Assembly (NCBI GenBank): GCA_034723395.1
Contig: JAYEOW010000039.1
Location: 1 to 32,613, forward strand
DNA: 32,613 nt
DNA from: Candidatus Margulisiibacteriota bacterium
Lineage (GTDB): Bacteria; Margulisbacteria; WOR-1; O2-12-FULL-45-9
Reading direction: 5' to 3'
Each line of letters opens with the position of its first letter. Position 1 is the stretch's first letter. The position numbers were made by a program, and so were the translations under genes. The notes below the pieces were generated by a model. The model had not been told where the DNA came from. It ran no database searches and saw nothing but the letters and a program-made list of their open reading frames with translations. This document shows positions 2,398 through 19,265 of this stretch, piece by piece.

Positions 2398-3623
2398 TCC
2401 CATCGATCACCGAAATTCTTAATGTCATTAACCAAGATGTCTTTATCTTATCGGCCGCCCTGCTTATCGTCGGTTTCGCCTCCGGCCGGTTAGTCAGCAT
2501 CATCCGCCTCCCGCGGGTTACCGGATATATAATTGCCGGGGTAGTTTTTGGCCCTTCTCTCTTAAAGGTATTTTCCGAAAATTCTCTCTCCCATCTCGAA
2601 TTTATCCCCCAGCTCGCGCTGGGGATAATCGCCCTGGTTATCGGGGCCGGACTAAGCCTTAGCCTGGTCAAAAGGCTTGGATTCCGCCTGATCTTGATCA
2701 CCCTTCTCCAGGCTGTTGGGGCTTTCCTTTTTGTATTTGTCTTCCTGTTTATCTTCAAAATGCCGCTGGGGGCCGCCCTCCCCCTCGCCGCAATTGCTAC
2801 GGCAACCGCGCCGGCGGCAACCGTCGCGGTAATAAAGGAATGCCGCGCGCGCGGGCCCTTTACCGAAACAATCCTGGCCGTAGTCGCTTTAGATGACGCG
2901 ATCGCGATCATCTTGTTCGGTCTAGTATTAACCTTTGACCCTAAGCATCTGACTGAATTTGGCTCCGGTGCCCTCCATTCGCTGTCAAATTCATTTGTTG
3001 AAATATTACTGGCCTTAGTTATCGGCCTTGTTCTTGGAATAATTGCCCACTCTTTAATAAAGATCACCAAAGAAAAGACAGATACGCTAATTATCATTCT
3101 GGGGATGGTACTTTTGGGGATCGGGGTCTCTACGATCTCCCATGTCTCCGCCCTTTTGACAAATATGTTCTTAGGGCTAACCCTTATTAATATCTCTTCC
3201 CGCAATGAGGATATCATAGTAAATCTCGAGCGCCTAACCCCTCCCATATATTGTTTCTTTTTTGTTCTAGCCGGCGCGTACCTCAACCTTAATATTTTTA
3301 TTACCGCCGGGACCGTGCTGATCATCTGGGGAATTATTTTTGTTATGATGCGCATCGCAGGGAAGGTGCTCGGGGCGTATGCTGGGGGAGCCCTTTCGGG
3401 ATCATCCGATGCGGTACGGAAATACCTCGGCTTAACCCTTATCCCGCAAGCTGGTGTTGCCATCGGTCTAACTTTGCTGATTACCAAAGGGTCCCCATAT
3501 TACGATTTCCGAACTATTATATTAAATATCACCCTAATTTCCGTTGCTTTTAACGAAATTATCGGGCCGATCTGCACCAAGTACGCCCTGTTCAAGGCCA
3601 GGGAAGCAATTGTAGAAAAATAA
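2394..3623 (+). CDS. Cation:proton antiporter (Na+/H+ exchanger, Kef-like membrane domain)
   Basis: About 12 hydrophobic segments; LPRVTGYIIAG, ATAPAAT, VVALDDA and PQAGVAIGL motifs; TTG start overlapping the upstream stop. Confidence 0.9.
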   Translation: MIPSITEILNVINQDVFILSAALLIVGFASGRLVSIIRLPRVTGYIIAGVVFGPSLLKVFSENSLSHLEFIPQLALGIIALVIGAGLSLSLVKRLGFRLILITLLQAVGAFLFVFVFLFIFKMPLGAALPLAAIATATAPAATVAVIKECRARGPFTETILAVVALDDAIAIILFGLVLTFDPKHLTEFGSGALHSLSNSFVEILLALVIGLVLGIIAHSLIKITKEKTDTLIIILGMVLLGIGVSTISHVSALLTNMFLGLTLINISSRNEDIIVNLERLTPPIYCFFFVLAGAYLNLNIFITAGTVLIIWGIIFVMMRIAGKVLGAYAGGALSGSSDAVRKYLGLTLIPQAGVAIGLTLLITKGSPYYDFRTIILNITLISVAFNEIIGPICTKYALFKAREAIVEK

Positions 3624-3637
3624 ACTGGGGGTAAAAA

Positions 3638-4024
3638 ATGGCAAAAAAGAAAACTAACGGCAAAGGGAAAAAAGTACTCATCATAGAAGACTACCCGGCA
3701 ACATCCGAAATGATATTAAACTTTCTGGAAACCGAGGGAATCAAGGCATCGGTCGCGCCGGATGGCCTCATTGGGCTAAAAATGGTCGGATCGGAAAAAC
3801 CTGACCTGATCTTATTGGACATCATGATGCCGGAGATGAACGGGTTTGAAGTATTAGAGAAATTAAAAAGCGACCCTAAAACAGCAAAGATCCCGGTAAT
3901 TGTGGTTTCGATAAGGGCCTCCGAAGACAGTATAAATAAGGGGAAAGGCCTCGGCGCTGATGATTATATTCCTAAGCCCTTTGATCCGTTTAAATTGATG
4001 GAAGTGGTCAGGAAGTTTCTTTAG
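3638..4024 (+). CDS. Single-domain response regulator (receiver only)
   Basis: VLIIED, PDLILLDIMMPEMNG, GADDYIPKPF; no output domain. Confidence 0.93.
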   Translation: MAKKKTNGKGKKVLIIEDYPATSEMILNFLETEGIKASVAPDGLIGLKMVGSEKPDLILLDIMMPEMNGFEVLEKLKSDPKTAKIPVIVVSIRASEDSINKGKGLGADDYIPKPFDPFKLMEVVRKFL

Positions 4025-4844
4025 TAGATTCAAAAACTACCAGAGCTTTAATAAGCCTGTCTACTTTTTTGGCTAATTTATTTTCCTTTAGCATTTTATT
4101 AAATTCATTTCTGGTCAGCGCCGGACGGCAAAACCATTTTCCCGGGAAATAAAAAAGCTCCATCATCAGGTCGGTGATCCATCTCTCTTTTTTTACGACT
4201 AAAGAACCAAAAAAAGCGCTCCCCTTTTTTAATACCCGTGACATTTGCCGCATCCCCGCCTCTTTTTCGGGAAAAGAGTGGATCCCGTTTAGAGTAAGCA
4301 AACCGTCAAATGCCCCATCTTTAAATGGGAGCTTGGCTACATCTGCCCTCACAACCACCACATTTTTTAACCCCATTTTATCTATCTTGCTTTTAGCCTC
4401 TTTTACCATCCCCCATGAATAATCGATCGCTACAAATAAAATATCAGGATGTTTCGCGTACTCCCTTATGGTGTGGATTCCAGTTCCAATCGGGACCTCT
4501 AAAACAATTCCCCTTTTCACCCTTTGAAATAGCTTTCTGGTTATATTCTCACACTCCTTGATATCATCGTAGCCGTATCCCAGCAGCAAGTATTTTAAAA
4601 GCCTCCAGCGAAACTTATTCCCCTCCATATAATCATCATACATAAAAAGTGACTGGTCATAGGCCTCCCCGATTTTTTTGTGCTTTGTATTTGACTCCGG
4701 GCCAACAAAATTTATTATCCCGTTAATTTCCGGATAGAAAATATCTTTATCTTTTTCCAGGAAGCCCCGCCTTCCCTCTTTTTCAAAATACGAAAGCGTC
4801 GAATCCGTCCGCGGACATTTAATGATCTCTTCTAAGCGTTCCAT
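4008..4844 (-). CDS. Class I SAM-dependent methyltransferase with Trm112-like N-terminus
   Basis: VLEVPIGTG motif I, AIDYSWGM, ADVAKLPFKDGAFD; N-terminal IIKCPRT...YPEINGIINF; SD AAGGAG. Confidence 0.88.
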   Translation of the reverse strand: MERLEEIIKCPRTDSTLSYFEKEGRRGFLEKDKDIFYPEINGIINFVGPESNTKHKKIGEAYDQSLFMYDDYMEGNKFRWRLLKYLLLGYGYDDIKECENITRKLFQRVKRGIVLEVPIGTGIHTIREYAKHPDILFVAIDYSWGMVKEAKSKIDKMGLKNVVVVRADVAKLPFKDGAFDGLLTLNGIHSFPEKEAGMRQMSRVLKKGSAFFGSLVVKKERWITDLMMELFYFPGKWFCRPALTRNEFNKMLKENKLAKKVDRLIKALVVFESTKETS

Positions 4845-4874
4845 GCTGTCTCCTTTGCAGGTTTATTTAATACA

Positions 4875-4925
4875 ATTATAGCAATAAATATGTACATTGA
4901 CACTGCTCAAAAAATATATAATAAT
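4875..4925. promoter_or_regulatory. Overlapping divergent promoter region (methyltransferase / ketosynthase)
   Basis: Minus strand TGcTATAAT (4883-4875); plus strand TTGACA (4897-4902) followed by an AT-rich -10 region (TATAATAAT, 4917-4925). Confidence 0.5.
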
Positions 4926-4961
4926 AAACCATTCTAATTCTTATACGAAAGGAGTCGTAAA

Positions 4962-6068
4962 ATGACCACACTAAAAGAGGTTGAGTTAGTTTCCACTGGA
5001 GTATACCTGCCCGGCGAACCGGTTCCCTTTGAAAAAATCGAAGAAAGGATAGGACATCTTGACCGCGCAACTCCCAGGATCCAAAAACTCGTTAAAAAAC
5101 TAAAGCCTTCAATTAAAAAGTTGCTCGGAATCGATCAATGTTACTTTGCCATAAACCCGGTAACAAAAAAAGTTACCGAAAGTAATACTAGTATGAGCAC
5201 AAAAGCGATCCAACATGCTCTAGGCAAAGCAAAAATGGAAGCCAATGAAATTGACTGCATTATATTAGCTAACCCTCTCTCTGATTATCAAACTCCCCCA
5301 ACAACAACTCTGATCCAAGAAAGCCTGGGGATTGAAAATTGCGCAGAGATCGAGGTTCATTCTAATTGCACAGGAATCACTAAGGCAATGCAGATTGCGT
5401 TTGATTCTCTGCGATTGGGAAGATATAAAAACGTCGCTATATCATATTCGCAGTTATCATCTGCTTATCTTTTGTCTGATATTTATAATCAAGAAAAAGT
5501 AAAAAGCGAAAATCTCCTTCTTCGCTGGTTCCTGTCGGATAGTGCAAGCGCCGTAATTCTTAAGGCCAGAGATTCGTTTGATACAGGCATTAAGGTGGTA
5601 GGGGTCCATAATGAGTCCCTTGGCTGCAAACACAAACCCGCAATGTGGTCCAGGCTTGGGGCAAAAAATATAAACCTGCCAGAGGTATTTGAAGCAGGCA
5701 TCCATCACCTTGGCCAGGATTATTCTGCAGTAAACAACCTCGCCCCTGAATTTATTGCTTGCGGATTCGAAAAATTATTAAATCATACAAAAACGAATAT
5801 TAATAAGATCGATCATGCGCTCTCAACTATCCCCTCTATCATGCTTTTTGACAAGATCCGGAATCATGTCGATGGCAGGCTATCAATATCCGCCGACAAA
5901 TGGTTCTGTAATATGCAGAATAAGGGGTATAGCGGCGGTTCATCAGTTATCATCGGCCTCGATGAAATGATCGATACAAATGTATTTAAAAAGAATGAAA
6001 CCCTTGCCTGTGTTACAATAGAATCGAGTAAATGGATGGTTGGAGGATTTATTCTTGAATATCTATAA
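4962..6068 (+). CDS. FabH/KS-III-fold condensing enzyme, DarB/StlD-like
   Basis: GVYLPGEPV N-terminus, catalytic Cys in HSNCTG, LRWFLSDSASAVIL (DarB/StlD-type LRWMLSDGAGA), KWFCNM..GYSGGSS, IESSKW; SD AAAGGAG. Confidence 0.8.
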   Translation: MTTLKEVELVSTGVYLPGEPVPFEKIEERIGHLDRATPRIQKLVKKLKPSIKKLLGIDQCYFAINPVTKKVTESNTSMSTKAIQHALGKAKMEANEIDCIILANPLSDYQTPPTTTLIQESLGIENCAEIEVHSNCTGITKAMQIAFDSLRLGRYKNVAISYSQLSSAYLLSDIYNQEKVKSENLLLRWFLSDSASAVILKARDSFDTGIKVVGVHNESLGCKHKPAMWSRLGAKNINLPEVFEAGIHHLGQDYSAVNNLAPEFIACGFEKLLNHTKTNINKIDHALSTIPSIMLFDKIRNHVDGRLSISADKWFCNMQNKGYSGGSSVIIGLDEMIDTNVFKKNETLACVTIESSKWMVGGFILEYL

Positions 6069-6071
6069 AAA

Positions 6072-8561
6072 ATGATCTTTAAACCTGTTCTAACTGCTTC
6101 AATTTTGTTGTTCATTTGTGCCTTTGCTAATTTCTTTCTAGGATTTATTGTTTTTGCGAAGTCTAAGCGAACTATATCTCAAATAATATTTGCTTTTGTC
6201 TCTCTCTCTCTGGCACTCTGGTGCGTGGGAATTGGGTTATTTAGTTCAAACCTTTTTCCTATTGTTAGATCAGTTGGAATAAGGTTGGGGTTTTTTGCCG
6301 CAGCCCCTATTCCCTATCTCGCATTATTGTTAAGCTTTACTTTCCCTCAGAAGAAGTTACATATAAATAAATATGTAGTTGCGGCCCTTTTTATCCCCTC
6401 CCTTATATTGATAGTTTCAGTTTTTGACGGGATGCTACTCAAGCCTATTTCTACTAGCGAAGGAATATTTCTTGAGCTCGGACCATTAAATATGCTTTAT
6501 GCTCTTCATTTTATTATTTATTTTTTTGTTGCTATTTATAATTTTGTTAAGGGTTACTTCAATTCATCGTTTAGCGAGAAAAATAGATTTAAATATCTTT
6601 TTGCCGGAATAATCATTTCGTCCTTAATTGGCATCCTTTTCAATGTGAGCCTGGTTTCATTTTTCGGTTTGAGCAAAATGGTCTACATTGGTCCAATGGG
6701 CACGATCTTCCTTGTGGCTTTCACCACATACGCTATTCTTAAACACCGCATCATGGACATCGCGCTGGTCATTAAAAAAACTACCGCTTATTCCCTGGTA
6801 ACCACCGGAATAACTTTTGTATATGTTTTCGTCGTCCTCGGTTTTGAGTTCGCCTTTCGCGCTATTTTTGGATATTACTCTTTCCTCGCCTCCGCCCCCG
6901 CTGCTTTGGTCATTGCGGTTACATTTATCCCCCTGCGTGACCGCTTTCAAAAGATCACCGACCAGGTATTTTTTAGAAAAACACTCGAATACCAGAACAT
7001 TATTAAAGATGTTACCCGCTTAATCGTCTCGGTCACCGACTTAAACACTCTTTTCCGCCTGATCGACCGCACCATCATCCGGGCAATGTGCGCTAAGAAT
7101 GCCTCTATCCTTTTGCTTGAAGAAAAAGAGAACCATTTTCTCGTAGAAAAAGTAAGCGGGGTCCCAAAAATCGTAAAAGGGATAAAACTCTCCCTCGATG
7201 ACCATCTTGTCCGGTATTTTTACGAAAGAAAAGATGCCGTTGTCCTGGATGAGGTAAACGGCCTTATTCAAAGCGATATAATCTCGCAAAAAGAGAAAGA
7301 GAAATTGATAAAAGTCAGCGAAGAGATGGCCCATTTCGAAAGCGCGGTTACCATCCCCTCCTTTCTCAAAGGTAAATTAGTAGGCATTTTAAACCTTGGC
7401 GAAAAGTTATCCGGAGAACTCTACAACCCTGACGACCTGGAACTCCTGCTCACCATGGCCTCCGAAGCTGCGATCGCAATTGAAAACGCAAAACTCTATC
7501 GGGATATAACCGAGACCAGAGATTATCTTAACAATCTTGTTGAAGGATCGGACGACGCCATCTTAACTGTTGACCTCGAAGGAAAAGTCCTCTCCTGGAA
7601 CGAAGGGGCCAGTAAAATATTTGGCTTTACCCCCTCGGAAGTGCTCGGCAACCAGCCCCCGTTCTTTTCCCATGAAGAGACAATTCAACTAGTTAATAAG
7701 GTCCTTAGTAAAGAGGTGCTTAAGGCAATTGAGCTAGACAGAAAGAATAAATTCGGCCGGAACGTTCCGTTATTGCTTACCGCATCTCATGTAAAAGACA
7801 CCAACGGAAATATTATTGCGATTTCTGCCATCCTAAAAGATATCACCGAACTGAGAAAAGTTGACCAAATGAAGCACGAATTCCTCTCCATCGTCAGCCA
7901 TGAGCTTAGGACACCGCTCACCCCAATTAAGGGATATACCGCCATGCTTATGGCAGAAAAACTTGGAGAGATAAATTCCAGGCAAAAGAACGCGCTCGAA
8001 ATGATCTCCAAGCAAAGCAACCATCTGCACGAATTGATCGATAGTGTAATTGATATTGCCCGGATCGAATCTGGCAAAAAGATCAGCCTGCAAAAAGAGC
8101 CGATCTTCCTGGAAGATATTATTAACGAGAGTATCAAGATTATTTCGGAATCATCTCTTAGCAAGTCGGTAAATATTGAATTTACTGCTCCACCGGATCG
8201 CAGCGCTTTTTTAGGGGACCGCAAAAAACTGATCCGGGTATTGGACAACCTCCTTGGAAATGCGATCAAGTTTACTCCTGCCAAAGGGAATATCACGGTT
8301 ACGCTCGAAAAGATCAAAGAAGATATCATAATTTCTGTCTCCGACACCGGGATCGGCCTGGATGCTGGTGAAACCAAAAAAATATTTGAACGCTTCTACC
8401 AGGTTGATACTTCTTATACCAGATCATCGGGCGGGATGGGGATGGGGTTGTCGATCGCCCGTGAGATCATCGAGGCGCACAACGGAAGTATCTGGGCCGA
8501 ATCCAAAGGGGCCGGCAAAGGAACTTCTCTTATATTAAAGCTTCCGATCGAGATTAAGTAG
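6072..8561 (+). CDS. Membrane sensor histidine kinase (N-terminal 7TM-type sensor, GAF, PAS, HisKA, HATPase)
   Basis: Multi-TM N-terminus; GAF end LGEKLSG...AAIAIENA; PAS DAILTVDLEGKVLSWNEGA; H-box SHELRTPLTPI; N/G boxes NLLGNAIKFT, DTGIG, GGMGMGLSI. Confidence 0.95.
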   Translation: MIFKPVLTASILLFICAFANFFLGFIVFAKSKRTISQIIFAFVSLSLALWCVGIGLFSSNLFPIVRSVGIRLGFFAAAPIPYLALLLSFTFPQKKLHINKYVVAALFIPSLILIVSVFDGMLLKPISTSEGIFLELGPLNMLYALHFIIYFFVAIYNFVKGYFNSSFSEKNRFKYLFAGIIISSLIGILFNVSLVSFFGLSKMVYIGPMGTIFLVAFTTYAILKHRIMDIALVIKKTTAYSLVTTGITFVYVFVVLGFEFAFRAIFGYYSFLASAPAALVIAVTFIPLRDRFQKITDQVFFRKTLEYQNIIKDVTRLIVSVTDLNTLFRLIDRTIIRAMCAKNASILLLEEKENHFLVEKVSGVPKIVKGIKLSLDDHLVRYFYERKDAVVLDEVNGLIQSDIISQKEKEKLIKVSEEMAHFESAVTIPSFLKGKLVGILNLGEKLSGELYNPDDLELLLTMASEAAIAIENAKLYRDITETRDYLNNLVEGSDDAILTVDLEGKVLSWNEGASKIFGFTPSEVLGNQPPFFSHEETIQLVNKVLSKEVLKAIELDRKNKFGRNVPLLLTASHVKDTNGNIIAISAILKDITELRKVDQMKHEFLSIVSHELRTPLTPIKGYTAMLMAEKLGEINSRQKNALEMISKQSNHLHELIDSVIDIARIESGKKISLQKEPIFLEDIINESIKIISESSLSKSVNIEFTAPPDRSAFLGDRKKLIRVLDNLLGNAIKFTPAKGNITVTLEKIKEDIIISVSDTGIGLDAGETKKIFERFYQVDTSYTRSSGGMGMGLSIAREIIEAHNGSIWAESKGAGKGTSLILKLPIEIK

Positions 8562-9415
8562 TGAAGATATTTATCGACGGCAAGATAATCCCTTCCGAAA
8601 AAGCGACAATTTCTGTTTTTGACCGCGGCCTTTTTTACGGTGACGGTGTTTTTGAATCGCTCAGAACTTACAACGGTAAAGCCTTCCAGCTCGATGAACA
8701 CCTAAAACGCCTGGTTAAAGGAACAAAATCACTTAAGATCCGCCTCCCTTATTCGATTAAACAATTAAAACAGGCCGTTGTAAAAACTATCGCGGCAAAT
8801 AAATTTGAAGAATCTTATATAAAAATTATCGTTACTCGCGGAAAATCAATGGGCCATGGGCTTGATCCAAGAAATGTTGAAGGCAAAGCGACCCTGATCA
8901 TTATCGTTGAAAAGCAGAAAGTCTTCTCCCAAAAAATATATTCCTCAGGATGGAAGGCGATTATCAGTTCGGTCAAAAAAGCAAATGTCCCAATTTCAAA
9001 GATAAAGTCGCTAAACTACCTGGATAACATTTTAGCTAAGATCGAAGCTAATAAAACAGGGGCGAACGAGGCCATTCTGCTTGACGAAAAAGGAAACATC
9101 GCTGAAGGGACCATTAGTAATATTTTTATAGTAAAACATGGGACCATTTACACACCGCCCGCGGACTCTCCCATCCTCCCCGGCCTGACCAGGAAGCTGA
9201 CGATTAAACTGGCCAGGCAATCCGCCTTTAAAATAATCGAAAAGGTGATCTCTCCAAAGGAACTATACACCGCGGACGAATGTTTTATAACTTTTAGCGG
9301 CGCGGGAGTTGTTCCAATCACCCGGATTTGGAATAAAAAGATCAGCAAGGGAAAGTGCGGACCAATCACCTCAGGCTTAATCGGACTATACGCTGCTGAA
9401 ACAAAAAAGATTTAA
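8561..9415 (+). CDS. ilvE: Class IV PLP aminotransferase, probably branched-chain amino acid aminotransferase (4-amino-4-deoxychorismate lyase not excluded)
   Basis: DRGLFYGDGVFE, KSLNYL (PLP lysine), EGTISNIF, ILPGLTR; GTG start overlaps the kinase stop. Confidence 0.7.
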   Translation: MKIFIDGKIIPSEKATISVFDRGLFYGDGVFESLRTYNGKAFQLDEHLKRLVKGTKSLKIRLPYSIKQLKQAVVKTIAANKFEESYIKIIVTRGKSMGHGLDPRNVEGKATLIIIVEKQKVFSQKIYSSGWKAIISSVKKANVPISKIKSLNYLDNILAKIEANKTGANEAILLDEKGNIAEGTISNIFIVKHGTIYTPPADSPILPGLTRKLTIKLARQSAFKIIEKVISPKELYTADECFITFSGAGVVPITRIWNKKISKGKCGPITSGLIGLYAAETKKI

Positions 9416-10185
9416 GGAAGTAAAACGTACTTTGCTCTCTTTGTGCTCGGATTTTTCCTGACCGTTGCCTTTATCCGATAAGCCTTCCATATATTTTCAG
9501 GGGTAAGGACCTTGTTTGGCTCCCCTTCGGCGATCAATTCACCCTTTTTTATCAGCATAAGCCTGGAACAGTGCCGCGCCGCCAGGTTAAGATCGTGGAA
9601 GGTTGCAACTACTGCCCGGTGTTTTCTTAATTTCCATAACAACTTACAGATCCTCACCTGGAAGCGAAGATCCAGGTGGGTCGTTGGCTCATCCAATAAT
9701 AAAACCCTGGGCTCTTGAGCAATTGCCCGGGCAATTGCTACCCTTTGGAATTCACCTCCCGATAATTTGGTCACCGGCCGGTCTTTTAACTTCTCTATCT
9801 TAAGCTCCGAGAGCGCCCAATCGACCGCGTTATAATCTTTCTCTGTCTCAAAAAAGAAGCGTCCAAAATATGGGGTTCTGCCGAGAAGGATCAGCTCTTC
9901 GACCGAAAACCCGGCAACCGGCTCCATCATCTGCGGGACAAAGGCGATCCGCCGCGCAACCTCTCTTGGTTCCAGATGATCGATCCGTTGGTTGCTGACC
10001 AGGACTTCTCCTTTCTGGATCGCCAATAGGCCGATGATCGCGCGGAGAAGGGTTGTTTTACCAGATCCGTTGGGGCCAACGATCCCGACAAAATCACCCT
10101 CATCTACCGAGAACGACATATTTTTAACGATCGGTTTTTCCGGTAAATATCCGCAGCTTAAATTCTCTACTTTTAAAACGGTCAT
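9412..10185 (-). CDS. Cobalamin/iron-complex ABC transporter ATP-binding protein
   Basis: Walker A GPNGSGKT, LSGGE signature, LLLDEPTTHLD, HDLNLA. Confidence 0.93.
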   Translation of the reverse strand: MTVLKVENLSCGYLPEKPIVKNMSFSVDEGDFVGIVGPNGSGKTTLLRAIIGLLAIQKGEVLVSNQRIDHLEPREVARRIAFVPQMMEPVAGFSVEELILLGRTPYFGRFFFETEKDYNAVDWALSELKIEKLKDRPVTKLSGGEFQRVAIARAIAQEPRVLLLDEPTTHLDLRFQVRICKLLWKLRKHRAVVATFHDLNLAARHCSRLMLIKKGELIAEGEPNKVLTPENIWKAYRIKATVRKNPSTKRAKYVLLP

Positions 10186-14456: not shown

Positions 14457-14861
14457 ATGATAAAAATAAATTGCCCCGTAATAACTTTTTGCCCGTCAAA
14501 GGGGATCAATGCCCGCAGGGCAACATTTATTCCCCTGCTCAATCGGAGACCATACTATGTAAGGGGAATAGATATAGAATTAACAAAAGGTAATAAGCAA
14601 ATAATTATTCATCTAACCTCTTACGCGGCGAAAAACCAAAAACTTGCCGAAGCCGCGCTTGATTTCTTTTCATCAGACCGAAGGGGCCAGATGGCCGCTG
14701 AATCAAGGGCATACATAGATGACCGGCCAACTGAGGTAAAAACAGAGGGGATCACTTTTAGATATTTGCGATTCCACACAGACACTCACCGCACCGAAAA
14801 ACTTTCTACACCCGAAGGACATCAAGTTGCCGAAGTTGTTCTTTCCTATCGATATAAATAA
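14457..14861 (+). CDS. Hypothetical protein (134 aa)
   Basis: ORF fills the gap between ftsK and the methyltransferase; SD-like GGTGAG; no recognised motif. Confidence 0.6.
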   Translation: MIKINCPVITFCPSKGINARRATFIPLLNRRPYYVRGIDIELTKGNKQIIIHLTSYAAKNQKLAEAALDFFSSDRRGQMAAESRAYIDDRPTEVKTEGITFRYLRFHTDTHRTEKLSTPEGHQVAEVVLSYRYK

Positions 14862-15860: not shown

Positions 15861-15956
15861 CTCAACTCTCTCGCTACGCTCGTTCGCTCGATCTCCTTCG
15901 CCTCGGAACGAGGGACGCAGTCCTGAGCGAGGGAGCATAGCGACCGAGTCGAAGGA
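15861..15956. repeat. REP-like long imperfect inverted repeat / hairpin
   Basis: 15861-15889 (ctcaactctctcgctacgctcgttcgctc) pairs imperfectly with 15925-15954 (gagcgagggagcatagcgaccgagtcgaag); internal hairpin cctcg-gaa-cgagg at 15901-15913. Confidence 0.75.
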
Positions 15957-16713
15957 CTGCCGGGCTTGGACTCGAACCAAGACTGCTTGCTTCAAAGGCA
16001 AGTGACCTACCATTAGTCGACCCGGCAATACTGTTAGTAATCCCTTCTATCCAACCTGCAATCCTACGGTTTAAATCGGTGCTTCGTCTAATCGTTAAAT
16101 TTAATAAGCCGAAATAATTCTTACCAATATTTTTCCTATTCGTTTTGATCCGATTCACTTTAAAATACACATTGTTTAAATATTTTCTACTTATTCCCAC
16201 TTCATCCGCCCAGTATTCAACAACTTCTTTAATCCTATGTTTATTATTTTCATGAATATATATTTCATATCTTATTCTATTTTCCTTCACTTTACAAATT
16301 TCACGAAGCCACTTTATAAACATTTTCATCATGCCGGGGTCCGAATTGCCAAATTTCATCCTCGAAGATTTCCTGTCTTCCCTATCCTTTGCTCCCTCTG
16401 CCCAGTAAAGAATTGTCCCAATTAGCCAAAGTTTTTCACGGTTAATATTTATTTTAGCCGCTTCTACCCTTGCTTTCTCTTTAATTTGCCGGGTGATTTC
16501 CAATCTTTTGGCTCTCTGCACCTGCGCTCCTCGTCTCGCCGCGTCTAATTTTTTTTGGGTCAATCTCTGTTTTTGCTTTTTGCTCAGGCCAACTTCCCTT
16601 AACCATAGCGATAAGGTAGACTTTGCAACAGGAATTTGTTCCAATATTTCCCCATACGAAAATCCTTTTCTTCTTAAATTAACTGCCCTCTTTTTTTCTT
16701 TTGATTTCACCAT
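15874..16713 (-). CDS. HTH + LAGLIDADG-like ('LYWAEG') basic protein whose frame runs through tRNA-Gln
   Basis: N-terminal HTH (LRRKGFSYGEI...VAKSTLSLWLR); GTILYWAEGAK helix followed by FGNSDP, resembling a LAGLIDADG endonuclease core. No stop codon before the tRNA. Confidence 0.7.
   Translation of the reverse strand: MVKSKEKKRAVNLRRKGFSYGEILEQIPVAKSTLSLWLREVGLSKKQKQRLTQKKLDAARRGAQVQRAKRLEITRQIKEKARVEAAKININREKLWLIGTILYWAEGAKDREDRKSSRMKFGNSDPGMMKMFIKWLREICKVKENRIRYEIYIHENNKHRIKEVVEYWADEVGISRKYLNNVYFKVNRIKTNRKNIGKNYFGLLNLTIRRSTDLNRRIAGWIEGITNSIAGSTNGRSLAFEASSLGSSPSPAVLRLGRYAPSLRTASLVPRRRRSSERA
15957..16027 (-). tRNA. tRNA-Gln (UUG)
   Basis: Acceptor stem TGCCGGG/CCCGGCA, D-loop TAATGGTA, anticodon arm CTTGC-CTTTGAA-GCAAG, T-arm CTTGG-TTCGAGT-CCAAG, discriminator G; CCA not encoded. 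Confidence 0.97.
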
Positions 16714-16850: not shown

Positions 16851-19265
16851 ATGAGAATAGGATCAAGAGTACCGTATGGCCACGCTATTCATTTTAAAAG
16901 ACCTGGCCCCGGTCCGGGTGAGGGGAGGGGAAATATCCCCCTTAAAACAACTTCTGCAAAGCCCCCCGGGGAAGCGGGGATCCCCCAGCTAAAGAATGAT
17001 CTCCTTGAAGAACTACGCTCAAAAAAGAGATACAACAATATTGAGATTGAAGCTCTGGAGCGGGCCTTTAACCTAATGGTCAGCCACTACGGGGAAAAAG
17101 AAGCCGATTGGAAAAAAACAGTTATCAACCTTCTTCACGTCGCAAAAACGCTGGCAGCCTGGGGCACCGACCCCCTGGTTGTTTCCGCCGGACTTCTTCA
17201 TCTCATGCCCGTCGACGAATTGGCCCGGGAAAACATTGACCCTCGGGTAGTTGACCTGATAAAAAGAAAAAGCATTCTTGGATCTTATTTATTTATCCCT
17301 CTTATTGGAAAGATATCGGAGCGTGAAGCAGATTACTTGTTAAAAATGTGCCTGATGCAGGAAGGAAACAGGAACGTCTGGCTTCTTGAGGGCGCGTGTG
17401 AATTCGCATCTTTATCGACCAACTCCCATACCGGCACGACCGCTTCAAGGGCTTATCATATAACTTCGCGTATACTTAGCCTGTTTGACCTGGATTCAAT
17501 ATCGGTCCTGGTTGAAGATATTTCTCTTCTCCGGCTAGATAAAGAAGAATATCAAAAAATCGAGTCCATCATAACCGCCGCAAATAAAAGATCACGTTTA
17601 GATGCTCTATCACGTCTCAGGACCGTTACAGGGTTGGTTAGCGAAGATCTAGCCCTCAAGGGAATTAAACATCGCATCCAAATCGATGTAAAAAGTGTCC
17701 CGCGAACCCTAAAAAAGATACGAAAGGGGAAGAAATTAACTGACGCAAGCCGGTTCAGGGTTATCATTGAAGGCGCGGCAGAGCAATGCGTCAAAACCAT
17801 GGACGTTGTTACCGAAGACCTGACCGCCCTTGGCTATTATGAACTTACAATGGGGAGGAACAATTTTTTGCACGGCGTTACAATAACTCCCGGCAATAAT
17901 TTTGGGCGGAAGAAGAATGGTTATGAATCAATCCATCTTCATTTCAGAGGCGAAAATTACGAACCGGTAAACGTCCAAATTCGGACCGAAGAGATGCATG
18001 CCGAGGCAGAAGCAGGCTCCGCTTCGCATGGCCGATTCAAATTAAACGGATTGCTGGGAGCCCCGTCTATTGATGAGGCCGGCATTATTAGAGAGAAGTT
18101 AATCGCCAGCGGAGAAAAATATGGAATTCACCGGGGGATAACCTATCGATTATTACCCAACGATGCCGGCAAAAAGGTAAAATTGCTGGATTTGGCTTTT
18201 TGCGTAAATCCGGACCTCGGACTGCGCTGCCCCGAACATGTAGACGTGCGAAGGATCGACCCAAAGACCGGAAAACGAGAAAGGTTAATCCTTAAAGTTT
18301 CTTCCCCGGTTGAAAATGGCGACGTCGTTATCATCAAAAAAGGAAATATCTTATCCAGAAATCCAAATCAGGCCTCAACCGCCTCAACCTCCACCGCATT
18401 AAAATTGGCCACTAGGGGCGTTCTTGATAAGCAGAGAATTCAACAGCGGACTTCCGAAGCAGCCCAGGAAGGGGAAATTGCAATCGAAACCGAACTTTCC
18501 CCCTGGTTCAGGACGTTGACCGAATCAATTCATTCAGCTCTCGAAAGAGATGGGAAAGATCCGGGGAAGGCAAAAATTTATATTTCAAGCTCGCTTTCCC
18601 ATGTTGCGCACGCCAGGTTTGGCCTGGAGGATGAAAAAGGGCTTTTTGTTTATGCCGGATTAGCTAAAGATAGAGAGCAGACACTAAAAAAAATTGTTCA
18701 AGGCATAAAAGATGCTTCCGTAGCATCCGCTTACCTGGTGGAAGAACGGCACACCCGTCTCTGGATGATGGTTCGCGATATTCCAGGAGTTGTTTCTGCA
18801 ATTTTTCTGCTTATTAATAAGCAGAACCTCGGCATAGAGACCTTTAATATAAAACAGGTAACAACTAACTATTCACTGGCAAAAATAACAATGCGGTCGC
18901 GTAAAAAAGATTTCGAATCGGAAATGCGGCATATCCTGGCGGGAGCAAAAAACATATATTCTAATATAACCCATAGGACTAAGGGGATAATGCGCAGGAA
19001 GATCGAGGTCCTTTTCTCCTTAAACCGCTGTAATGCTTATGTGGCCCATAAGATTTCCGCAATGATGGCAAAAAACGGCGCAAATATCGTTTCCGCACAA
19101 ATGGACAAAGATGAATCAAGAGCGAAAATGGCCTGCTCTTTCACAATTTCTGTCCCGATAGGTTCACTAGATTCTTATATAAGAAATTTGAACAGAAGAA
19201 TTGAACTATTGAAAAAATCAATAAAGTGGCTGCGTGTTTCTCCCCTTTCCATCGATAAATACTAA
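16851..19265 (+). CDS. Divergent long RelA/SpoT homologue (HD-like, synthetase-like, TGS-like, ACT-like domains), catalytic residues degenerate
   Basis: HVAKTLAAWGTD..VVSAGLLH, KNGYESIH, VQIRTEEMHAEAEAGSASH, LLDLAFCVNPDLG..C, VENGDVV, MVRDIPGVVSAI. Confidence 0.82.
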   Translation: MRIGSRVPYGHAIHFKRPGPGPGEGRGNIPLKTTSAKPPGEAGIPQLKNDLLEELRSKKRYNNIEIEALERAFNLMVSHYGEKEADWKKTVINLLHVAKTLAAWGTDPLVVSAGLLHLMPVDELARENIDPRVVDLIKRKSILGSYLFIPLIGKISEREADYLLKMCLMQEGNRNVWLLEGACEFASLSTNSHTGTTASRAYHITSRILSLFDLDSISVLVEDISLLRLDKEEYQKIESIITAANKRSRLDALSRLRTVTGLVSEDLALKGIKHRIQIDVKSVPRTLKKIRKGKKLTDASRFRVIIEGAAEQCVKTMDVVTEDLTALGYYELTMGRNNFLHGVTITPGNNFGRKKNGYESIHLHFRGENYEPVNVQIRTEEMHAEAEAGSASHGRFKLNGLLGAPSIDEAGIIREKLIASGEKYGIHRGITYRLLPNDAGKKVKLLDLAFCVNPDLGLRCPEHVDVRRIDPKTGKRERLILKVSSPVENGDVVIIKKGNILSRNPNQASTASTSTALKLATRGVLDKQRIQQRTSEAAQEGEIAIETELSPWFRTLTESIHSALERDGKDPGKAKIYISSSLSHVAHARFGLEDEKGLFVYAGLAKDREQTLKKIVQGIKDASVASAYLVEERHTRLWMMVRDIPGVVSAIFLLINKQNLGIETFNIKQVTTNYSLAKITMRSRKKDFESEMRHILAGAKNIYSNITHRTKGIMRRKIEVLFSLNRCNAYVAHKISAMMAKNGANIVSAQMDKDESRAKMACSFTISVPIGSLDSYIRNLNRRIELLKKSIKWLRVSPLSIDKY

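Follow-up and report, generated by a model that had tools for sequence, protein, structure and literature searches.

Joint exchange of a ketosynthase and the 7TM part of its neighbouring histidine kinase at a Margulisbacteria locus: a candidate signal synthase and receptor

The window analysed here is a stretch of 32,613 nucleotides (nt). It is the complete contig C39 (JAYEOW010000039.1) of a Candidatus Margulisiibacteriota genome of 1.68 Mb that is 97% complete (GCA_034723395.1). Homologues bearing names come from Ca. Margulisbacteria or Ca. Saganbacteria. Our subject is a stand-alone type III ketosynthase (KS) and the adjoining histidine kinase, which has a seven-transmembrane (7TM) sensor. 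An earlier note on this DNA assigned both to a four-gene cassette, and all four open reading frames (ORFs) are intact and arranged as it described. The KS gene (4962–6068, + strand) encodes 368 amino acids (aa) with a thiolase fold; the protein is related to StlD/DarB and belongs to a family without a name. The kinase gene (6072–8561, +; 829 aa) follows the KS stop codon after a 3-nt gap. It encodes a HisKA_7TM sensor part (6072–6749; residues 1–226) and a kinase chassis (6750–8561) that has further membrane helices and GAF (~7038–7487, +), PAS (~7527–7850, +), HisKA and HATPase_c domains. Divergent from the KS gene is a gene for a class I S-adenosylmethionine (SAM) methyltransferase, UbiE/COQ5-like (4008–4844, −; 278 aa). 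This overlaps by 17 nt the end of a gene for a single-domain receiver (3638–4024, +; 128 aa), in which Glu17, Asp18, Asp61, Ser91 and Lys113 are intact. On the other side, an ilvE-like aminotransferase gene (8561–9415, +) overlaps the kinase stop by 1 nt and flanks the insertion site.

A promoter region shared by the KS and methyltransferase genes had been proposed. The 117-nt gap between them (4845–4961) does contain overlapping sigma-70-like sites on opposite strands, the best-scoring site of the region (4897–4925, +; 11/12) and one with an extended −10 element (4903–4875, −; 10/12), though the total for positions 3500–9600 is at chance level (12 vs 12.7 ± 3.2). An AAGGAG Shine-Dalgarno-like motif also precedes the KS gene in this gap. 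As the earlier note had it, genes for an acyl carrier protein (ACP), Fab enzymes or DarA are missing from the 32 window ORFs scanned; the same domain scan found no exporter in the cassette. The housekeeping fab operon (fabH, plsX, fabD, fabG, acpP, fabF) is on contig C29 of the same genome. No relative was found in the viral contigs searched, and among the sequencing runs consulted no RNA run was listed as a carrier.

The AlphaFold model of the KS (pLDDT 96) is closest in fold to StlD (Z 45.3, root-mean-square deviation 2.3 Å over 354 residues, among the top 1000 Foldseek chains). The next match is AbyA1 (Z 41.2); FabH has a Z of about 40. StlD/DarB, known from Photorhabdus and Pseudomonas, is also the best sequence match among solved structures (PDB 5GK0, 5GK2; E 2e-14, 21% identity). 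Motifs around an LRW-x-L-S-D segment and a C-terminal ES are common to both. The description of the KS as DarB-like thus stands for the fold. It does not stand for family membership, which we rejected because the KS scores far below the NCBIfam StlD/DarB cut-offs (122.3 bits against 450 for NF005293; 100.8 against 550 for NF053539) and because three key positions are replaced: StlD His302 aligns with Thr289, the triad Asn with Tyr323 and Glu154 with Gln164. The relatives P0062, P0063 and P0074 score similarly low on the two models (100–127 and 79–99 bits). In StlD, we take His302 to be dispensable and Glu154 to be the catalytic base. The KS is not the housekeeping FabH either: it scores 77 bits against the TIGR00747 cut-off of 292, lacks the triad, and the genome has its own fabH beside plsX on C29.

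The altered active site is a property of the whole family. Of 76 homologues, four partial ones were excluded and 72 aligned. The triad Cys is present in 72 of 72. Conversely, His is never found at the triad His position (Thr in 42, Ser in 14, Asn in 13, Pro in 2, Ala in 1), the Asn position is always Tyr, and the position of StlD Glu154 is Gln in 62. Residues Cys136, His249, Gln252, Tyr323, Glu354 and Lys357 are invariant, whereas DarB-type sequences in the same alignment retain SE, H and GN. In FabH, His and Asn drive malonyl decarboxylation; since both are missing, chain elongation by the KS is unlikely. CerJ and ChlB3, as described in the accessible part of PMC9573744, are alike in having the KS-III fold, a changed triad and no decarboxylative elongation, but their triad is Cys-His-Asp; in the window family, Tyr takes the place of Asn and the canonical position lacks His. 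Because this conserved site is unlike those of FabH, DarB and CerJ, the family probably harbours new thiolase-fold chemistry, even if the signalling role considered below does not hold. It has hundreds of relatives, with 519 confirmed matches in one metagenome scan.

Close KS relatives (50–100% identity) are present in 11 of 61 related genomes, and a search of 146 genomes of the phylum found no further close KS. We pooled the former with close loci from the metagenome scan (best 80 loci of 519 matches) and a genome scan (best 80 loci of 222 matches). Near-duplicates (L067, L068, L069, L072, L078) and genome-scan repeats (L146–L152) were left out. This gave 20 close KS loci, three of them cut by contig ends and so not assessable. 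At all 17 assessable loci a 7TM kinase gene is directly downstream, starting no more than about 11 nt from the KS stop. Conversely, none of 139 distant KS loci (34–41% identity; the downstream stretch is 1 kb or longer in 117) has a 7TM match, and some kinase core occurs within 6 kb at 6 of them. The genes flanking the KS-kinase pair vary widely between close loci. The linkage, whose conservation the earlier note had put forward for checking, is therefore real and far beyond chance. Chance neighbourhood within an island of signalling genes, or a spare housekeeping FabH, might be suspected: 7TM genes are numerous (328 profile matches in 64 of 65 genomes of the class) and several loci are kinase-rich islands. 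This explanation is excluded in practice by the 17 of 17 adjacency, the KS-specific sensor clade described below, the separate fabH in its fab operon and the loss of His and Asn.

Three observations concern the pair at individual loci. Two tandem, diverged KS copies stand ahead of one 7TM kinase at L074:342-2575. A KS-7TM pair on a contig labelled Ca. Taylorbacteria (L153) is beside Margulisbacteria-like genes (metK, xerC), and misbinning is possible. A gene for a B12-binding radical SAM protein, possibly a further tailoring enzyme, adjoins the KS or methyltransferase gene at L033:7427-8698 and L035:4900-6210.

The sensor part of the kinase matches PF16927 (HisKA_7TM) with 35.6 bits against a gathering score of 28.6, and 15 of the 17 members of alignment A3 match this family at E 0.01. 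The phospho-transfer motifs of the kinase (His610 and the N, G1, F and G2 boxes) are intact. In the sensor model (pLDDT 93), seven helices are predicted and a beta-hairpin separates the fourth from the fifth; by positive-inside count, the N-terminus and hairpin are outside (10.1 vs 2.8 Lys+Arg). The 7TM profile had no sequence match up to E 1 among solved structures, and the literature checked names no HisKA_7TM ligand. Residues specific to the clade of sensors linked to this KS include Leu136, Tyr143 and Tyr205 in the outer half, and positions 79, 86 and 176 in the inner half. In 11 of 13 partner classes, it is the outer half of the sensor that shows the stronger partner-specific conservation. 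In a SufS-like partner class the gain is larger in the inner half.

We built a tree of 136 sensor domains, hand-picked from the higher-ranked of 150 matches listed among the 328 and supplemented with 20 regions with extra KS matches. The KS-linked sensors form one clade of 21 (SH-aLRT 100), which comprises every sensor encoded downstream of this KS (19), a single one encoded upstream and one without an adjacent KS. The clade is recovered from residues 1–205 with a mixture model (57 rows, quick tree, support 100). Three subgroups are common to the KS and sensor trees, so that the suggested comparison of the two phylogenies gave a concordant outcome. The clade sensor without a KS beside it (L404:1-1119; L275/L404, genome G044, 80% complete) is reminiscent of a solo receptor. 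At L077:628-1728, a 366-aa 7TM gene without a kinase is upstream of the KS.

The kinase cores behave differently. A single clade for the cores of 18 KS-linked proteins was rejected (approximately unbiased test, p 3.8e-94). In the core tree, long branches involve L031 and L153, but L076 falls within a clade of other partners with support 100. We then mapped the class of the upstream gene onto both trees for 58 kinases, these being 70 labelled ones less 11 without a core in the fetched DNA and one duplicate, with singletons unlabelled. Labels came from BLAST and Pfam classes, pooled two KS types and spanned 12 partner classes. The sensor tree needs 14 changes of class and the core tree 26, against a theoretical minimum of 11; none of 200 shuffles needed fewer than 33 (sensor) or 32 (core). 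An exchange junction is seen near residue 200, where identity between the window kinase and that of L262, which carries another KS type, rises from 18–24% before to 40–70% after. L033 and L262 share a gene context, with an NAD-epimerase gene downstream, and have related cores, but they differ in KS type and sensor. Hence, the inherited, exchangeable unit is the KS plus sensor residues 1 to ~200, placed on different kinase chassis. The four-gene cassette of the earlier note is not such a unit; the methyltransferase is optional, and the receiver also occurs in genomes without the KS.

The slot upstream of 7TM kinases is shared by other enzymes. Three other KS-III types occupy it (8 loci, 7 genomes), as do genes for FeeM-like and GNAT acyltransferases, methyltransferases, B12 radical SAM proteins, SufS-like proteins and nucleotidyl-transferases. 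A type C KS (Cys-His-Asn, with an OleA-like Glu-Pro) is directly upstream of its own 7TM sensor clade at L256, L261 and L268 (genomes G033, G049 and G032). It is possibly a pyrone- or olefin-type synthase and may be nearer than the window KS to the PpyS homologues of the candidate phyla radiation (CPR), given a presumed likeness to PpyS. An unexpected partner is the SufS-like class V aminotransferase, whose genes stand ahead of one 7TM kinase clade (L291, L298–L301, L307). Elsewhere, a widespread double-7TM kinase of about 1090 aa (G000:C29:95067-98339 and L335–L354) is followed by a regulator, and the gene upstream of it is hypervariable. The grouping of the kinase's sensor domains follows that gene and conflicts with the grouping of the core: C29 and L354, both linked to a methyltransferase, fall together, as do L335, L348 and L353 in domain 2.

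Joint exchange does not by itself require a diffusible signal. The KS might instead act as a co-sensor that binds or turns over cytoplasmic acyl-CoA or acyl-ACP and contacts the inner face of the sensor, or that acylates or methylates the receptor. This would explain the exchange of enzyme and sensor equally well, and the slot partners resemble binders of core metabolites (SAM, acyl-CoA, cysteine/pyridoxal phosphate, nucleotide sugars, B12). The loss of the canonical His and Asn fits such a role, as does the inner half of the sensor being as partner-specific as the outer in the KS class, and more so in the SufS-like class. However, the same altered active site is found at the 139 loci without the 7TM kinase, many in lipid or polyketide clusters, which argues for a working biosynthetic enzyme. 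Specificity of the outer half prevails in 11 of 13 classes, and a sensor without an adjacent KS exists. We consider the co-sensor unlikely, though it deserves to be taken seriously.

The distant relatives bear on what the enzyme might make. Among the 139 distant loci, neighbours include FabF (33), PEMT-like (71) and OleD-like reductase (55) genes, and LolA-like/ABC exporters also adjoin. Nine loci carry a DarA-family gene by Atlas automatic names (score 0.97; no NCBIfam match), and the fetched DNA there contains no DarB-like enzyme other than the Tyr-type KS. At these nine (L094, L099, L115, L131, L132, L158, L159, L177, L182) the KS and DarA-family genes are accompanied by FabF copies, enoyl-CoA hydratases and an ACP. 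The clusters are from Thermodesulfobacteriota where named, some have type III polyketide synthases or sulfotransferases, and together they may encode an orphan resorcinol-like lipid pathway. In Planctomycetota (e.g. L105, L136) the same KS family stands ahead of a PEMT/isoprenylcysteine-type methyltransferase and an OleD-like reductase. Three DarA-family queries gave no tblastn match in the window genome, itself 97% complete, or in the 20 close loci.

Two further explanations should be weighed against these neighbourhoods. In one, the sensor monitors how much of a structural or protective lipid is in the cell's own membrane, and this lipid is made or modified by the KS and methyltransferase. 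The PEMT/isoprenylcysteine-type methyltransferases, OleD-like reductases and LolA-like/ABC exporters beside distant relatives are consistent with this, as is the cassette's lack of an exporter. However, a structural lipid pathway would not be expected to be so patchily distributed (the KS is in 11 of 65 genomes of the class), nor to give way freely to unrelated enzymes at one chromosomal site, as in L033 compared with L262. We regard lipid self-monitoring as improbable. In the other, what the sensor detects is an external cue originating in a host or neighbour, and the enzyme's task is to convert it or remove it. A Cys-only acyl-enzyme could be an acyltransferase, as are CerJ and ChlB3 with their changed triads (PMC9573744, accessible part), and co-evolution with the sensor would look identical. 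Conversely, a condensing enzyme is the nearest match in fold and sequence, with the Z scores for StlD, AbyA1 and FabH given above, and DarA-family genes are near some relatives. To this explanation we give little credence.

On balance, we favour the interpretation that the KS is the synthase of a small acyl-derived signal and the 7TM sensor its cognate receptor, as the gene order and trees suggest. In such a circuit, the housekeeping fab pathway would supply acyl-ACP or acyl-CoA, whose acyl chain would be transferred to Cys136. Lacking the His/Asn pair, the KS would couple this acyl group non-decarboxylatively, either to another acyl thioester or to a different nucleophile. If so, our single best guess at the product, and a doubtful one, is a dialkyl-cyclohexanedione-type lipid formed by DarB-like head-to-head condensation. 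The guess is made mainly because the nine distant loci pair a DarA-family gene with this KS type; with no DarA found in this genome, the product would not be aromatised. Where present, the methyltransferase would cap the product and give a variant signal. The lipophilic product might then leave the cell or partition into the membrane, and bind the 7TM bundle from the outer side. Autophosphorylation at His610 would shift, with relay to a single-domain receiver, possibly that at 3638–4024. More broadly, and more tentatively, the lineage may possess a plug-in system in which each enzyme travels with its own GPCR-like (G-protein-coupled receptor-like) sensor of 200 residues on a shared chassis; here, the Cys/Tyr/His KS would make a new class of acyl-derived autoinducer, with methylation creating dialects.

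Several results count against a synthase and receptor pair. In this KS class, the conservation gain of the outer sensor half is nearly equal to that of the inner (0.12 vs 0.11). The clade sensors are only ~30% identical over residues 1–200, compared with 49–63% for the KS; because the KS is far better kept, a shared ligand fits the sensor divergence poorly, unless products vary. Foldseek rows for the sensor model are all GPCRs, which speaks for the pair, but the matches are weak (E 0.002–0.008, none at or below 0.001; TM-score 0.30–0.52). The partner labels behind the count of class changes were set after the sensor tree was seen, and kin share labels. Some slot partners (SufS-like, GlmU-like nucleotidyl transferases, CheR-like) have no evident role as signal synthases, and physical contact between enzyme and sensor would be equally expected to produce joint exchange. 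Finally, Glu is absent at the StlD base position from 72 of 72 members, and DarB chemistry would need other residues.

Pairs of a synthase and a membrane kinase are familiar from CqsA/CqsS, LqsA/LqsS, PhcB/PhcS and RpfF/RpfC, and from the hypervariable agrBDC and comQXP loci. In these, the enzyme gene is beside that of a multi-transmembrane kinase, and the enzyme and the N-terminal part of the sensor co-vary while the kinase core is shared. The window cassette is alike in that the enzyme and sensor part are exchanged and the core is common. It differs in its HisKA_7TM sensor, and in that unrelated enzyme families swap in one slot, whereas the known pairs and loci vary within one family. The window cassette also departs from the StlD/DarB systems, having neither DarA nor ACP and a membrane kinase as the candidate receptor. 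Typical StlD/DarB products are carboxy-cyclohexanediones. DarB condenses two thioesters, a beta-ketoacyl and an enoyl one, head to head (PMC6836626, PMC7154725), and its type of signal is sensed via the LuxR solo PauR (PMC7154725), according to the accessible parts of these papers.

The earlier note regarded a circuit of this kind as undescribed. That can no longer be said of a KS paired with a kinase. As far as the accessible part of the paper goes, Bernard et al. (2020; PMC7567580) found three PpyS homologues beside sensory kinases in CPR, proposed a complete quorum-sensing system, and also counted 18 LuxI homologues in their survey. Their pairs resemble ours in that a stand-alone KS-III adjoins a sensory kinase, but the KS family and the phylum are different. 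The supplements do not contain the term '7TM', and the portion of the text seen describes no sensor co-phylogeny or domain exchange. The literature searched, mostly outside subscription journals, held no account of this KS family, of a HisKA_7TM partner or of enzyme-sensor exchange. What is particular to this locus is a KS with an unlisted active site, together with a tree test across 12 partner classes.

If the KS product is indeed a signal, it would represent the first ligand class for the HisKA_7TM kinases, which are abundant (64 of 65 genomes) and have no ligand in the literature checked, and would point to chemical communication in an uncultured phylum. The two-gene pair is small enough for expression in Escherichia coli, making the question directly testable, and natural swaps provide cognate and non-cognate controls.

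The remaining genes are linked to the pair less tightly. The methyltransferase gene is divergent from the KS at 6 of the 20 close loci (three loci have <500 nt upstream) and occurs in 5 of 65 genomes of the class, every one carrying this KS. Its place in the cassette, as originally drawn, is thus right in so far as it is confined to KS-bearing genomes of the class, but it is an optional partner. In genome G005, a contig begins with the methyltransferase gene, which converges on the receiver gene just as in the window. Receiver orthologues (at least 55% identity) are within about 2.5 kb of the KS at 8 of the 20 close loci; in KS-less genomes, they are often behind another gene of ~500 aa. We rejected the receiver as a fixed member because 4 genomes in which no KS was found have orthologues of it (54% identity or more), and because it is separate from the KS in G022. 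It is loosely linked and possibly a phospho-acceptor of the kinase. A role for ilvE as precursor supplier was also rejected, given its presence in 24 of 65 genomes of the class, mostly without the cassette, and the empty site in G008, where ilvE directly abuts a Na/H antiporter gene. Hence, ilvE only marks the insertion site and is outside the cassette.

Elsewhere in the window, two ORFs (15874–16713, −, and 14457–14861, +) have no Pfam match, the former resembling a homing-endonuclease-type gene by eye. The ORF at 16851–19265 (+) encodes a protein of 804 aa that is RelA/SpoT-like but divergent, has a basic N-terminus of an unusual kind and scores only 57 against a family cut-off of 499.

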